Shown: positions 13,987-51,063, numbered from the stretch's first letter. The stretch: DNA of 64,000 nucleotides from an uncultured delta proteobacterium (GCA_963737905.1 CAVTUQ010000026.1:160001-224000); one strand, 5' to 3'. Translations and numbers: made by a program. The notes: generated from the letters alone by a model not told the origin.

Positions 13987-14001
13987 TGGCACGATGCGTG
14001 C
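13987..14001 (+). promoter_or_regulatory. Sigma-54 -24/-12 promoter
   Basis: TGGCAC-GATGC-GTGC, about 50 nt upstream of the small secreted protein. Confidence 0.75.
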
Positions 14002-14053
14002 GCATGCAACGGAGCAGGAAGAAAAAATCTTATGAAGAAAGGAGGTGAGTCAA

Positions 14054-14356
14054 ATGAAAAAGAGCGTATCACTTCTATGTAACCTGCTCCTGTCCTCGAC
14101 CCTGTTTTGGGGCGTGCCCTCGGTTGGCGCAGAAGAGATGATCGACGTGGTTCCCGCCGATATTACCGGTTATTGTCATCTACAGTTCCCCCTGATGAGC
14201 GAAGACAGTTTGTCGTGGGAGCAACCGGTTCTGGATCCGCTGACGGGCAACGTCGTCGATTTTTACGGGCCCTGTGATTATGACCCGACGGGGTCCGATG
14301 AGATCCGCGCCCAGAGGCGTGTGATTCTTCGCGGCGATTTTGATGACGGAGATTGA
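14054..14356 (+). CDS. Small secreted acidic Cys-pair protein, paralog 1
   Basis: RBS AAGGAGGTGA; Sec signal ending VGA|EE; YCHLQFP...DFYGPCDYDP conserved in two other copies. Confidence 0.85.
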   Translation: MKKSVSLLCNLLLSSTLFWGVPSVGAEEMIDVVPADITGYCHLQFPLMSEDSLSWEQPVLDPLTGNVVDFYGPCDYDPTGSDEIRAQRRVILRGDFDDGD

Positions 14357-14379
14357 ATGACGAGCAGGACCCGTGAGTC

Positions 14380-14413
14380 AAGTTAGGGGAAGGCCTTCTC
14401 CTTCCCCTAACTT
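14380..14413 (+). terminator. Stem-loop after paralog 1
   Basis: AAGTTAGGGGAAGG / CCTTCCCCTAACTT perfect 14-bp stem; a related hairpin follows paralog 3 (50933-50966). Confidence 0.65.
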
Positions 14414-14695
14414 CTCCAACAAGGATCTGTCTTGCCGTCACGATATCGGTTAGCGGAGAAGGAGAATGGATATCGGTCTTCCTGTCCTCAACTTTGGGTC
14501 GCAACTCAACGTAATTCGAATGACGGGTCTTTGGCCATTCCGATGTCCATGATATGCAAATGCAGGTAACTAAGTAGACACGCGCGTAAACGATTGGATA
14601 CCTTCTCTAATTTGTCTCACGCCAAAGTTCGGTGACCTCCGAAAGTTATTTACTTAAAGTCGAATACATTTCATCGAGCGACAGTCCCAAATCAG

Positions 14696-14710
14696 TGGCA
14701 CAAGAATTGC
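14696..14710 (+). promoter_or_regulatory. Consensus sigma-54 promoter upstream of the CHASE2 operon
   Basis: TGGCAC-AAGAA-TTGC (perfect consensus); enhancer-like site at 14565-14580. Confidence 0.75.
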
Positions 14711-15137
14711 CCACTCGCTAGACGTCCGGCTGATGGCCGACGGGTCAAGTCAGTGGCAGTCAGGTGCCTCTGATAGGAGGAGTGATCTCACCAGAAAGTT
14801 GAGCTAAAGTCGCGAAAATTTCTCACTGCATATGGGAAGCGCTACTCGAAAGGGGCTGCCTAAAAGAAAGTTGCGCATCCGCACGGATATAGGTTATACG
14901 AGTGGCGAAGCTTCCTACTGTTAATCAAAAGGCAGGTGCCTTGGTGATATGGCTGTCCGTTTATCCATCAGGGTCCCACCAGCAGTTTTTTGCGGATTAT
15001 GAACGCTATCGGGGAACGGTATTGAGACTTTCGAACCGGTTTTGAGCGTTGGTGATCATGATCGTTAGAGCCTTTGCGTAACGATACAAACGCAAAGACT
15101 CAATAGCGCAAAGCAAGCCACAAATCGGAGTTTTAAC

Positions 15138-48567: not shown

Positions 48568-48601
48568 GCATTGTTAAGGCAAAGCTGATAGGGACACGAC
48601 G

Positions 48602-48895
48602 ATGAAACCCGGAGATGTGCTGACAACCACCAGACCGATTCGTTCACAAAAGACCGGGGTCGTCCTGCCCCGCCAGGGAATCTTTGTGAGCGCGATCGAA
48701 AATCTGGGCCGCCAGCTGATCCTGGTCAACTTTGGCAAAGTCGGCCTGGAGTATCTGTTCCCCAATGAAATCCTGGCGCAGAGTCCCGGCGTTAACGAGA
48801 GTTTTTCTGCTTCTTACTCTCAAGATTTAATCCGCCCGTTCACCTATCCCCAGCCGCTTCAACTTCTTGATCAACCCCTGGCGGCTCAGGCCTAA
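48602..48895 (+). CDS. Small hypothetical protein, SH3-like beta pattern in the first ~60 aa
   Basis: MKPGDVL...ILVNFG...EYLFPNEI pattern; RBS-like AGGGA; tail overlaps the convergent activator. Confidence 0.55.
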   Translation: MKPGDVLTTTRPIRSQKTGVVLPRQGIFVSAIENLGRQLILVNFGKVGLEYLFPNEILAQSPGVNESFSASYSQDLIRPFTYPQPLQLLDQPLAAQA

Positions 48896-50410
48896 CACGT
48901 GAGCCGCTTTTTGTTTGTTTCCGCCAGAATTTCGCAGTTCCTCCTCGATAAGCCGGCGCTCTAACTGCTCGACCGCGTCCGGTAGGGATCGAGACGTCGG
49001 CGACTTCGGCGCCGGTTCCTCTCTGGGCCGGGAGCTTTGAATGGCCGCGCTCGGATTTCGAATAGAACCGTCCAAATAAGCTTCAGTTATCGATTTCTCT
49101 CGTACTGAGGCGACGAGGCGTTTTACTTCGTTTTCTAGCTGGCGCGAGTTGCCGGGCCATGAGTACTTCGACAGCGCTTCTAAGGTCCCCGGGGTAAATT
49201 GTTTTGGATCCGCGTTCATCATCTTGCAATACTTAGTCAGAAAGTGGTTGGCCAATACCGGGATATCCTCCGAAACATCGCGAAGCGAGGGCGTGTGGAT
49301 GTGAATTACCTTCAGGCGGTAGTAGAGATCTTCGCGAAACGTCCGCTCGGTGATGGCGGCTTCCAGGTTCTTATTCGTGGCGGCGATAACACGCAGATCG
49401 ATGGGCACCGCGCTCCTGCCGCCGACTCGGTCCACCGAACGCTCCTGAAGAACCCGAAGAATCTTCGCCTGGGCCGACAGGCTCAAATCGCCGATCTCGT
49501 CCAGAAACAGCGTTCCGCCATTGGCTTCCTCGAATTTGCCGATGCGGCGGTCGACGCCGGTGGCGACACCTTTTTCGATCCCGAACAGCTCCGCTTCCAC
49601 GAGATTGTCCGGCAGCGCCGCGCAGTTCACGGCGACGAAGGAGTGCTTCGCGCGGGGGCTGTTGTGATGTAAGGCTTTCGCTACCAATTCTTTTCCGGTG
49701 CCGCTCTCGCCCTCGATCAAGACGTCCACCGAGCAATCACGAATCTGGTCGATCAGGCGAATGATCGATTGAATCCTGTAACTCATGCCGAAGATGTTCT
49801 GCGTGGAGAAGCCCCCGCCAACGTCCGCACGGCGGTCGGTTTCTTTCTGCGACGGGTATTCCTGTAGCTGTCTCTCGAGCTGAGTGGTTTCGATCGTATC
49901 GGAGACGTGGGCCGCCAAAGTCTGCAACAGCTCGGCATCCTCATCTGTGAACAGACCTTCGCTTTTGTTGATCGCTTCGCCGACACCGATAATCTCGCCC
50001 TTGAGATCTCTGAGAGGCACCGCCAGCAAAGTTCGAGTTCGATATCCCGTCTGTAAGTCGAGCTCCTTGTAAAACAGCGGATGGTCGTAGGCATCCGCCA
50101 CGTTGATCGTCTGACCCGTCATGGCGACGCTACCGGCGATGCCCAGCCGCGCGTCGAGGCGCATGATCTTTTTCTCCTGCGAAATCACCGACCACAGCTC
50201 GCACTTCTCACGATCCAGCAAGAAGATGCTCACCCGATCCGCTTTGAGCAGCGCCTTGGTCTCAATCGTAATCAACTCCAAAAGAGAAATGACATCCCCT
50301 ACGGAGGTCATCCGTTTGCAGACGTTGAGGATCGCACGCAGTCTATCCCCGTGTTGGCCTTCACTCTGGGAAGACGGGATCTCGAGAGTAGGCGTTTGGC
50401 TCTGGTTCAT
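48827..50410 (-). CDS. GAF-domain sigma-54-interacting transcriptional activator
   Basis: GAF (GIAGSVA, TGYRTRTLLAVPL, INK); [14 protein letters not shown] loop; FLDEIG; Fis HTH. Confidence 0.93.
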   Translation of the reverse strand: MNQSQTPTLEIPSSQSEGQHGDRLRAILNVCKRMTSVGDVISLLELITIETKALLKADRVSIFLLDREKCELWSVISQEKKIMRLDARLGIAGSVAMTGQTINVADAYDHPLFYKELDLQTGYRTRTLLAVPLRDLKGEIIGVGEAINKSEGLFTDEDAELLQTLAAHVSDTIETTQLERQLQEYPSQKETDRRADVGGGFSTQNIFGMSYRIQSIIRLIDQIRDCSVDVLIEGESGTGKELVAKALHHNSPRAKHSFVAVNCAALPDNLVEAELFGIEKGVATGVDRRIGKFEEANGGTLFLDEIGDLSLSAQAKILRVLQERSVDRVGGRSAVPIDLRVIAATNKNLEAAITERTFREDLYYRLKVIHIHTPSLRDVSEDIPVLANHFLTKYCKMMNADPKQFTPGTLEALSKYSWPGNSRQLENEVKRLVASVREKSITEAYLDGSIRNPSAAIQSSRPREEPAPKSPTSRSLPDAVEQLERRLIEEELRNSGGNKQKAAHVLGLSRQGLIKKLKRLGIGERAD

Positions 50411-50543
50411 TGGCTCCTCCCTAGCATATCGACGAAAACACTGTCAACGAAGGCGACACACACCAACAACGACGTTGACGTTCCGCATCCTCTGCGTTCA
50501 TGAATCTCTCACGAAGACCAAGAGATTTGCGGGAAATCAATCT

Positions 50544-50558
50544 TGGCATGAGGGCTGC
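50544..50558 (+). promoter_or_regulatory. Sigma-54 promoter
   Basis: TGGCAT-GAGGG-CTGC at the same spacing to the ATG as paralog 2; TGT-N11-ACA at 50442-50458. Confidence 0.65.
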
Positions 50559-50608
50559 ACTCGTAATGAGCAGGAAGTGAAAATTGAGAAAGAAAGGAGG
50601 TGAGTCAG

Positions 50609-50933
50609 ATGAAAAAGAGCGTATCACTTCTATGTAATCTGCTCTTGTCCGCGACACTGTTTTGGAGCGTGCCCTCGGTCGGGGCAAGAGATGATCGACC
50701 TTATTCCCAGCGACACCACCGCTTATTGTCAGATGCAGTTCCCCCTGATGGTCGAAGACAGTTTGTCGTGGGAGCAACCCATCCTGGATTCGTTGACAGG
50801 CAGTGTCGTCGATTTTAATGGGCCCTGTGATTATGACGCGGCGGGGTCCGATGAGATCCGCACCCAGAAGCGTGTGATCCTTCGGGGCGATTTTGATGAT
50901 GGAGATTCAATGACGAGCAGGACCCACCAGTAA
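50609..50933 (+). pseudogene. Small secreted Cys-pair protein, paralog 3, frameshifted near 50686
   Basis: Signal peptide in one frame and mature domain (YCQMQFP...GPCDYD) in another; 2-nt deletion relative to paralog 1; paralog-1 TGA reads TCA here. Confidence 0.82.
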
Positions 50934-51063
50934 GTTGGGGGAAGGCCTCGTTCCTTCTCCTAAGCTCAACCGGTGCCCTGAATCGAGAATTGCGAATCCG
51001 TTTTAACAAACGTGCCAGCGCGCAGACCGTGGGAGAAAAATGATTATTTTCTCAGGTGAAGCA

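Follow-up and report, generated by a model that had tools for sequence, protein, structure and literature searches.

Small, putatively exported two-cysteine proteins behind sigma-54-type promoters in an uncultured lineage common in soils

The 64,000-nucleotide (nt) stretch of DNA analysed here, referred to below as the window (from an uncultured delta proteobacterium; GCA_963737905.1, CAVTUQ010000026.1:160001-224000), carries three copies of a gene for a small protein with a putative signal peptide and a conserved pair of cysteines. Each copy stands behind a sigma-54-type -24/-12 promoter element and beside a gene for an enhancer-binding protein, and in the clade to which the copies belong both the promoter and the linkage to activators recur among relatives. 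We consider it rather probable, if well short of assured, that this undescribed small-protein family is the regulated, abundant periplasmic output, binding or protective in nature, of circuits built around alternative sigma factors.

Copy 1 (14054..14356, + strand) is intact and encodes 100 amino acids (aa), the putative signal peptide taking up residues 1 to about 26 and the remainder forming an acidic mature domain of 74 aa with an isoelectric point (pI) of 4.05. Copy 2 (48205..48513, +) is also intact, at 102 aa, and copy 3 (50609..50933, +) is frameshifted, with the signal peptide in the frame that opens at 50609 (stop at 50818) and the mature domain in the frame 50691-50933. A first-pass annotation had called paralogues at 14054, 48205 and 50609; the open reading frames (ORFs) are there, and their paralogy is borne out by identity to copy 1 (60 per cent for copy 2 and 78 per cent for copy 3) and by profile E-values of 5e-61 to 5e-43 for the three. 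Aligned as DNA, the copies become similar at the promoter element and stay so through a conserved CAGGAAG box and the ribosome-binding site (RBS) into the coding region, and in copies 1 and 3 the similarity extends beyond the stop codon. Three is the count for the window and not for the genome, where a profile search finds seven copies: those in the window, two on contig C9, and the others on contigs C12 and C18.

The state of copy 3 deserves comment. It lacks 2 nt at about 50686 relative to copy 1, carries Asn where more than 90 per cent of the family has Tyr (Y71N), has a somewhat raised ratio of non-synonymous to synonymous substitution (dN/dS, 0.36-0.45), and is followed on its 3' side by two insertion sequences. 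It is a probable pseudogene, as judged from these features; for copy 1 and its orthologue, dN/dS is 0.19, which shows, as a sequence-based estimate, purifying selection on that copy. The frameshift in copy 3 may instead be an assembly error, since other genes, among them the kinase at 58312/60884 and numerous PF04392 genes, are split in the same assembly. A sister genome has an intact orthologue of copy 3, and one of the C9 copies is also frameshifted. Programmed frameshifting where the signal peptide meets the mature domain (copy 3, one C9 copy and locus L038) was considered and rejected: the sites differ, and the intact sister orthologue and the many split genes in the assembly disfavour it further.

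Promoter elements were sought with a rule that takes GG and GC ten bases apart, counts eight flanking consensus positions and scores the 200 nt upstream of each gene. As had been proposed for each copy, elements lie at 13987..14002 (copy 1, TGGCACGATGCGTGCG, score 6/8, beginning 67 nt before the ATG), 48140..48155 (copy 2, TGGCACGCCGTATGCT, score 7) and 50544..50559 (copy 3, TGGCATGAGGGCTGCA, score 7), all on the + strand and all with the sigma-54 consensus feature of GG at -24 and GC at -12, ten bases apart, within TGGCAC-N5-TTGCW. The narrower pattern TGGCAYG-N5-TGC matches the window at 13987, 48140 and 50544 and nowhere else (0.24 matches expected), a count that speaks of exclusiveness and not of independent significance because the pattern was derived from the same three sites. 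The genome encodes the sigma factor itself (rpoN; Sigma54_DBD at C37:108791-109267, 7e-62), and no sigma-70-like promoter was found in 13700-15200, around copy 1.

The shared RBS that had been reported, GAAAGGAGGTGAGT, precedes copies 1 (14037..14050), 2 (48188..48201) and 3 (50592..50605), all on the + strand; three occurrences in the window compare with 0.01 expected, and the 6.7-Mb genome holds no others. At copy 1 it is complementary to the 3' tail of 16S rRNA, AGAAAGGAGGTGA being the exact complement of 13 nt of the tail of the same genome, and the leaders of about 40 nt have folding energies of 0 to -2 kcal/mol, i.e. they are unstructured. Past the coding region copy 1 has a perfect 14-bp hairpin (14380..14413, +; -30.5 kcal/mol, z -3.7) and copy 2 a comparable one (48535..48568, +; -35.3 kcal/mol, z -4.7), the hairpin of copy 3 has decayed (-16.7 kcal/mol, z -0.3), and no T-run follows at any of the three. 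The first-pass description of each copy as a complete expression cassette with a downstream hairpin therefore survives for copies 1 and 2; copy 3 keeps promoter and RBS and falls short in its frameshifted ORF and weak hairpin. Rfam gave no match anywhere in the window.

The family to which these copies belong is large. A profile of the seven paralogues retrieves 3788 clusters at 90 per cent identity, all of them 'hypothetical' or unnamed and none with a Pfam domain; at 50 per cent identity there are 344 clusters, nearly all of about 100 aa. Only nine proteins are longer (191-257 aa, no Pfam domain), and these may be mis-called starts or joined tandem copies. The first-pass annotation had proposed a hidden Markov model search for copy number and taxonomic range, and the outcome is a lineage-restricted family: 17 of the 24 genomes of the window's taxonomic family carry members, with 1-9 matches each, as do two of five from another family in the same order; a third family (11 genomes) and 300 other genomes sampled across the phylum yielded none. 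Tandem arrays occur (e.g. three copies in L030). The public records with family members are mostly metagenome-assembled genomes (MAGs) labelled Candidatus Binatia or Deltaproteobacteria, a few bearing other phylum labels; the lineage itself, which public MAG records label Candidatus Binatia, Deltaproteobacteria or Thermodesulfobacteriota, is uncultured and common in soils.

For comparison we assembled 102 non-identical family genes at 103 loci, removing identical proteins and keeping close kin; several loci represent the same genome fetched twice, and the counts include loci L011, L014, L108 and L110 from the unpublished genomes G012 and G006. Clades were taken from a quick tree, in which clade A, with the window copies, has 100 per cent support in the SH-like approximate likelihood ratio test (SH-aLRT) and the node of clade B1, home to the C18 copy and one of the two C9 copies, has 91 per cent.

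A lack of conserved sigma-54 context among homologues, which the first-pass annotation had named as an outcome that would count against it, is not what these two clades present. In clade A 19 of 22 genes have an element scoring at least 6/8, always at -64 to -67, and in clade B1 16 of 18 have one at -52 to -60, as against 0.63 per cent of 4623 control regions upstream of long ORFs in the window's own genome that reach this score at -95 to -45. Elsewhere in the family only seven of 61 genes reach a score of 6, a lower bound because three further genes have a sigma-54-like site farther upstream. The idea of a dedicated, highly expressed sigma-54 output thus stands as to a promoter held at fixed distance in two clades and does not stand as a universal property of the family; control by sigma-54 is not family-wide because other clades use other regulators. 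Among genes of another clade that lie behind NtrC-type activators (L040, 3523-3955; L056, 3358-3955; L047, 3540-4003), a sigma-54-like site is found at -193 to -294, preceded by the conserved inverted repeat TTTTGATAC-N6-GTATCAAAA, and in L040 a small hydrophobic ORF intervenes between the site and the family gene.

The activators are the second constant of these loci. An enhancer-binding protein gene lies 166-319 nt from each window copy, in agreement with what had been noted at the outset. Copy 1 is preceded by a set of kinase, receiver and NtrC-type activator: a GAF-PAS histidine kinase (10335..12017, +; Pfam GAF_2, PAS, HisKA and HATPase_c, with no N-terminal membrane segment by eye), a stand-alone receiver-domain protein (12017..12403, +; Pfam Response_reg, 3.7e-31) and an NtrC-type enhancer-binding protein with receiver, AAA+ and HTH_8 domains (12346..13758, +; Sigma54_activat 1.9e-72), which starts at 12346 or 12406 and whose gene ends 298 nt before copy 1. 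Between copies 2 and 3, convergent with the former and divergent from the latter, is a gene for a GAF, AAA+, HTH_8 protein (48827..50410, -; Sigma54_activat 1.5e-64). Both activators have a GESGTGKE Walker A motif, the DE of Walker B and HTH_8; the NtrC-type protein has the canonical GAFTGA loop, which in the GAF activator is replaced by GVATGV.

Such adjacency is uncommon in the genome at large, which has 32 activator-like ORFs, three of them in the window, and only 2.1 per cent of its length within 1.5 kb of one. For three of the seven family genes the nearest such ORF is no more than 320 nt away, and for a fourth it is within 2 kb. The linkage expected among homologues is also seen, 14 of the 22 clade A genes having an activator within 1.5 kb. 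Twelve of these 14 activators are of the GVATGV type and represent one orthologous GAF, AAA+, HTH_8 protein, usually divergent from the small gene, with the loop ELFGIE(K/R)GVATGV and intact Walker A and B motifs. Across orthologue and paralogue loci in relatives (L104-L120) the sequence G[VI]ATGV is kept in 16 of 17, and 11 of these have an adjacent sigma-54-like site. Paralogous GVATGV activators, including that at C37:90923, adjoin a different conserved gene, of 150-173 aa and with no Pfam match. A text search of the literature for Binatia with sigma-54, or Binatota with RpoN, found nothing.

A candidate binding site accompanies the GAF activator. The motif TGTCAACG lies upstream of copy 2 (47936..47943, unstranded), and an inverted pair, TGTCAACG ... 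CGTTGAC (50442..50479, unstranded), lies in the gap that separates the GAF activator gene from copy 3, some 100 nt 5' of the -24 element; the motif recurs upstream of clade A promoters, often paired with its complement. In the form TGT[CA]AACG, a definition made after these sequences had been viewed, it is found upstream of 15 of the 22 clade A genes, one of the 18 B1 genes and 1.4 per cent of random windows. Genome-wide, 745 sites pass the promoter rule and ten of them have TGT[CA]AACG 40-260 nt upstream, of which three are credible when judged by eye from the ORFs that follow, namely copy 2, copy 3 and the target of a paralogous GVATGV activator, and these three therefore support a small, dedicated regulon. 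The word 'dedicated' in the first-pass annotation is accordingly well chosen for clade A, which is tied to one orthologous activator and whose combination of site and promoter is essentially confined to these places. Upstream of copy 1 there is no TGTCAACG-type motif. A large imperfect inverted repeat just after the stop codon of the NtrC-type activator (13763..13833, unstranded; arms of 22-23 nt, 82-87 per cent complementary) could be the activator-binding site of copy 1 or else the terminator of the activator gene.

Directly 3' of copy 2 is a further small ORF (48602..48892, +) without a signal peptide, the first 60 or so residues of which are conserved. Its homologues come right after clade A copies in L033, L032, L011 and L029 (52-75 per cent identity by tblastn), so that the copy 2 cassette has two genes; Pfam and PADLOC assign this ORF to no known family.

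Outside clades A and B1 the small gene keeps other company. In one clade a gene for an extracytoplasmic function (ECF) sigma factor is divergent from the small gene at seven loci, and an ECF-like promoter motif, GGAATT-N15-19-GTC, which like TGT[CA]AACG was defined after the data had been viewed, precedes nine of the 61 genes outside A and B1, none of the 40 within them, and 0.6 per cent of random windows. The loci of the ECF clade are L042, L049, L050, L054, L057, L058, L062, L075, L099 and L103, and several of its genes have a perfect palindrome, GGCCGATGATCGGCC, just before the RBS, perhaps an operator. At three B1 loci the small gene is followed by a stand-alone receiver gene, and in a further clade PF04392 binding-protein genes are the immediate same-strand neighbours of nine family genes (-1 to 260 nt), the two genes overlapping at stop and start in L080. 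The small gene thus appears repeatedly, in so far as gene order can tell, as the adjacent target of a dedicated alternative-sigma regulator. Repeated adjacency to alternative-sigma regulators is typical of envelope-stress outputs.

The protein itself is distinctive and without known relatives. Residues Y40, C41, F45, P58, D69, Y71, G72, C74 and Q87 are near-invariant; Cys41 and Cys74 are more than 90 per cent conserved, with His42 and Asp75 their commonest neighbours, and 84 of 95 family proteins have exactly two cysteines in the mature part, the median length of which is 75 aa and the median pI 4.95 over the 95 (4.05 and 4.23 in window copies). By eye the N-terminus reads as MKK, an 18-residue hydrophobic stretch and VGA before EEM, and a crude rule of n-region and hydrophobic core is satisfied by 83 of the 95, most of the other 12 failing where the script anchored on a cysteine of the signal peptide; from these features we infer Sec-type export. 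A PEP-CTERM sorting signal was rejected, the C-termini being acidic and without a hydrophobic tail by eye, as was a type IV pilin leader, the N-termini having no G/FTLIE motif by eye. Structure prediction, which the first-pass annotation had recommended, yields a compact beta-sheet with a C-terminal helix: AlphaFold2, given a 90-sequence alignment, scores residues 31-97 above 90 in the predicted local distance difference test (pLDDT) and models strands 31-34, 40-46 and 67-73 followed by a helix spanning 81-97. In this model Cys41 and Cys74 sit at the tips of adjacent strands, a placement that makes a disulfide between them plausible. That no named family is recognisable continues to hold: Pfam and NCBIfam have no family at E <= 10 for any of the three copies, PADLOC has no match, the profile finds nothing below E 1.6 among PDB sequences, Foldseek finds no fold match in the PDB at E <= 0.001, VIA-align finds no usable match among 48,161 chains (best Z 2.8), and the ESM Atlas has none in its full or its named clusters.

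Copy 1 or very close relatives are present in soil RNA libraries. Soil metatranscriptomes hold 5-11 per cent of the sampled words of a 2.8-kb stretch, and contigs that are 95-99 per cent alike cover 14038-14413 in a comparison of four runs: 14038-14350 in run X15 at a word depth of 43.8, 14044-14325 in X16 at 124-140, and 14050-14293 in X17 at 115-292, with similarly alike contigs on the activator gene or the upstream spacer standing at 2-4 in the same runs. Contigs that run past the copy 1 hairpin have a depth of 6-24 and then diverge from the genome. Positions 13923-14037 and those beyond 14413 are uncovered by the listed contigs; those starting at 14038-14044 enter adapter-like letters, and assembled RNA contigs cannot show a transcript start. 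The cover is consistent with high expression of copy 1, depth not being a measurement, and together with the perfect RBS and the unstructured leader it agrees with the earlier description of the gene as highly expressed.

A further regularity concerns nucleotide cyclases. Four of the genome's 17 Guanylate_cyc matches are in the window, and the CHASE2 cyclase gene (start 15138) comes right after copy 1, as a gene for a zinc-ribbon, cyclase, AAA_16, TPR protein comes right before copy 2; cyclase genes also adjoin clade A copies in L009/L028, L011 and L034, and a cyclase gene in L105 has a second sigma-54-like site ahead of it. Because cyclase genes recur and the activator has a GAF sensor, a cyclic-nucleotide input for the GAF activator is suggested. 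The cyclase genes lie at 4850-5932, 15138-17390, 21919-25380 and 44397-47840 (+), within 64 kb, and encode a receiver-cyclase, a CHASE2-cyclase and two zinc-ribbon, cyclase, AAA_16, TPR proteins of about 1150 aa. A further sigma-54-like site, TGGCACAAGAATTGCC (14696..14711, +; score 6), is found in the interval from copy 1 to the CHASE2 cyclase gene, whose start is about 440 nt farther on. CHASE2 was rejected as a conserved partner, the CHASE2 piece in L034 being on the opposite strand and overlapping the family gene.

Taken together, these observations suggest a mode of operation. A cassette would comprise, in order, an activator site 100-200 nt upstream, the sigma-54 -24/-12 promoter, a purine-rich, unstructured leader of about 40 nt, a Shine-Dalgarno sequence that would pair with 13 nt of the 16S tail, the coding sequence and a strong hairpin. 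The GAF activator between copies 2 and 3 most likely switches both on, probably by binding the TGTCAACG-like sites; for copy 1 the most likely activator is the NtrC-type response regulator whose gene lies directly 5' of it. The GAF activator would sense a cyclic nucleotide, a step for which the recurring adenylate/guanylate cyclase genes argue. Bound upstream, an activator would remodel the sigma-54 holoenzyme at the -24/-12 element and so make of each cassette an on/off, high-output unit, in which the unstructured leader and full-length Shine-Dalgarno sequence would give maximal translation; the product would be exported, oxidised in the periplasm and made in large amounts once induced. A condition-induced periplasmic binding or protective protein is the most likely identity for such a product, an enzyme or a diffusible signal being less likely.

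Several points weigh against a periplasmic output of this kind. No homology points to a function and no fold match was found, and both the kinase 5' of copy 1 and the GAF activator are cytoplasmic sensors, with nothing to tie the circuit to an envelope signal. Within clade A itself L011, L017, L031 and L036 show no activator in the flanking DNA examined, L029 has only a GAF fragment at a contig end, and three of the 22 genes, all downstream members of tandem arrays, are without a promoter of their own. Simple consensus rules underlie the promoter score as well as the binding-site and ECF motifs, two of the three having been defined after the data had been viewed, and the counts overstate independence because the loci are phylogenetically related and close kin were retained. 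Contig depth is a single figure that may pool paralogues or related organisms and is unsuited to ranking genes. Finally, work on PspF and NtrC reportedly found the phenylalanine of GAFTGA to be essential, and since GVATGV replaces that residue, activation by the GVATGV protein is presumptive. On this last point a regulon reconstruction in Desulfovibrio vulgaris is informative: DVUA0100 has GVATGV as well, and from its predicted regulons that study concluded that the altered loop still permits activation at sigma-54 promoters (PMC4641369).

It might be supposed instead that the product acts on the circuit that makes it, as a feedback modulator or protein ligand that binds a nearby periplasmic sensor (the CHASE2 cyclase, the dCache kinase at 58312 or a PF04392 protein) and so tunes its own loop of cyclase, GAF activator and sigma-54; ZraP tunes ZraS in this manner. 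The CHASE2 cyclase that follows copy 1, the CHASE2 fragment beside the L034 copy, the sigma-54-like site before a cyclase gene at the L105 locus, the close same-strand PF04392 neighbours of nine family genes in another clade, including the overlap in L080, and the recurrence of PF04392 and DUF1329 genes downstream of clade A copies (window, L028, L032 and L033) would all fit. However, the cyclases beside clade A copies have three architectures, two of them cytoplasmic, the L034 arrangement, with its overlap on the opposite strand, is not conserved, the activators and kinase next to the window copies have no periplasmic domain, and adjacency to PF04392 comes cheaply because the genome has 127 matches, many in tandem arrays. 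A complex prediction for the L080 family protein with the overlapping PF04392 protein returned 'no answer' with a score of 0.00 and speaks neither for nor against. We regard a feedback ligand as doubtful. Equally doubtful is its most ambitious form, in which the family is the exported arm of a closed loop that runs from the cyclases through the GVATGV GAF activator and sigma-54 to a protein that feeds back on CHASE2, dCache or PF04392 proteins, and that has been re-wired in other clades to ECF and NtrC-type regulators; were it true, the family would serve the alternative-sigma circuits of a dominant uncultured soil group as a general periplasmic adaptor specific to that lineage.

The cysteine pair with its His and Asp neighbours (YCH ... 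PCD) invites the thought of thiol or metal chemistry, i.e. a periplasmic metal buffer or redox protein. The conservation of Cys41 and Cys74, the usual presence of His42 and Asp75, the strongly acidic domain, the genes for MtrC-like multihaem cytochromes in the extended neighbourhood (window, L030 and L081) and a thioredoxin gene near one B1 copy are all in keeping with it. Yet position 42 is Q or N in some paralogues and position 75 is N, S, A, G or E in others, a variability that disfavours a fixed metal site; only the two cysteines are fixed, and so a structural disulfide fits better; and no similarity to known metal-binding or thioredoxin-like families or folds was detected. On balance we think such chemistry unlikely.

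A secreted factor for competition or signalling, whether a Sec-dependent bacteriocin-like protein or a diffusible protein signal, would explain the multiple diverging copies (1-9 per genome, with tandem arrays), the spread over 344 clusters at 50 per cent identity, and expression that was counted as strong. Most bacteriocins have a cationic mature peptide and an adjacent immunity or transport gene, whereas the mature domains here are acidic (pI 4.05 and 4.23 in the window, family median 4.95), no immunity, transporter or processing gene recurs beside family genes, PADLOC has no matches, and a dN/dS of 0.19 reflects purifying and not diversifying selection. A folded 75-aa exported protein could not meet the linked activators because these are cytoplasmic, which tells against a secreted signal, and we hold a factor of this sort to be very unlikely. 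That the small ORFs arose by chance, or are decaying relics travelling with a repeated promoter element, as the two frameshifted copies among seven and the insertion sequences adjoining copy 3 might hint, is scarcely credible and is already contradicted by thousands of intact homologues of constant length, by purifying selection, by a confidently predicted fold and by RNA contigs over the gene, and other genes too are split by this assembly, so that the frameshifts may be assembly errors.

The surroundings of the copies add some detail. Beyond the insertion sequences 3' of copy 3 lie two DUF1329 genes, a PF04392 binding protein, a dCache-GAF kinase, an NtrC-type activator and an MtrC-like cytochrome, and parts of this order recur in L028, L030, L032 and L033. 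The first DUF1329 gene has a sigma-54-like site 170 nt ahead of it, at 54576 (+), and the MtrC-like multihaem cytochrome gene that follows the NtrC-type activator has one about 80 nt ahead, at 62831 (+). The kinase (dCache-HAMP-GAF-GAF-HisKA, 58312-60918, +) is split by a frame change from its HATPase_c part (60884-61339, +), and an IS110-family transposase (51407-52689, -) and an rve integrase (53522-54486, +) are each split likewise. PF04392 (ABC_sub_bind) proteins are abundant in the genome, many in tandem arrays such as C27:2811-21944, C29:77652-99760 and C7:401844-412488, and many of their 127 matches are split or contain stops, as pseudogenes or through assembly indel errors. The window also contains a non-ribosomal peptide synthetase cluster (27168-42373). 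In L035 homologues of both sub-loci of the window are united, as copy, GAF activator, copy, the 197-aa ORF of 9766 and an orthologue of the kinase at 10335 that follows the clade A copy, and the two sub-loci may once have been a single cluster.

If the preferred reading of a regulated periplasmic output is right, the protein is probably among the more abundant envelope proteins of its lineage, because it comprises thousands of clusters with up to nine copies per genome, a perfect RBS and a strong representation in soil RNA; it would then be an abundant envelope protein family without a name, a domain model or a fold relative. It offers a compact sigma-54 cassette of binding site, promoter, leader, gene and hairpin, lends independent comparative support to the view that GVATGV activators work at sigma-54 promoters, and presents one small protein family under sigma-54, ECF and response-regulator control in sister clades. 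Should the circuit turn out to be ordinary, the gain would be the annotation of a new family and, for a group so far unstudied, a regulon.

There are known systems with which these loci may be compared. In the ZraS/ZraR-ZraP system of Escherichia coli and Salmonella a small, abundant periplasmic protein, encoded beside the regulator genes, is expressed from a sigma-54 promoter under an NtrC-family activator, and the likeness lies in an activator-adjacent sigma-54 promoter that drives a small, putatively periplasmic protein. The differences are that the family described here has no sequence or family relation to ZraP (Pfam and NCBIfam at E <= 10) and a predicted fold of beta-sheet and helix, that its kinase is without a periplasmic domain, that the family is multi-copy, and that one of the activators is of a GAF one-component type; the family models of ZraP, CpxP and Spy (LTxxQ type) are not matched by the three copies. 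Spy and CpxP of enterobacteria, small and very strongly induced periplasmic proteins that are hallmark targets of dedicated envelope-stress regulators, resemble it more loosely, in circuit logic; they depend on sigma-70 and on Bae or Cpx and are all-helical, and no similarity of sequence or fold to them was detected. Envelope stress also figures in the D. vulgaris regulome, where DVU3381 is listed as an 'envelope stress response' activator (PMC4641369). DVUA0100 of D. vulgaris Hildenborough has the same three loop substitutions as the window's GAF activator, is likewise a one-component protein beside sigma-54-type promoters, and like it has a function deduced from comparative genomics only; its N-terminal region is uncharacterised and it is predicted to control type III secretion operons, whereas the window activator has a GAF domain and flanks genes for small, putatively exported proteins (PMC4641369). 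Set beside these systems, the circuit that we describe is of a familiar type and the protein family is new.

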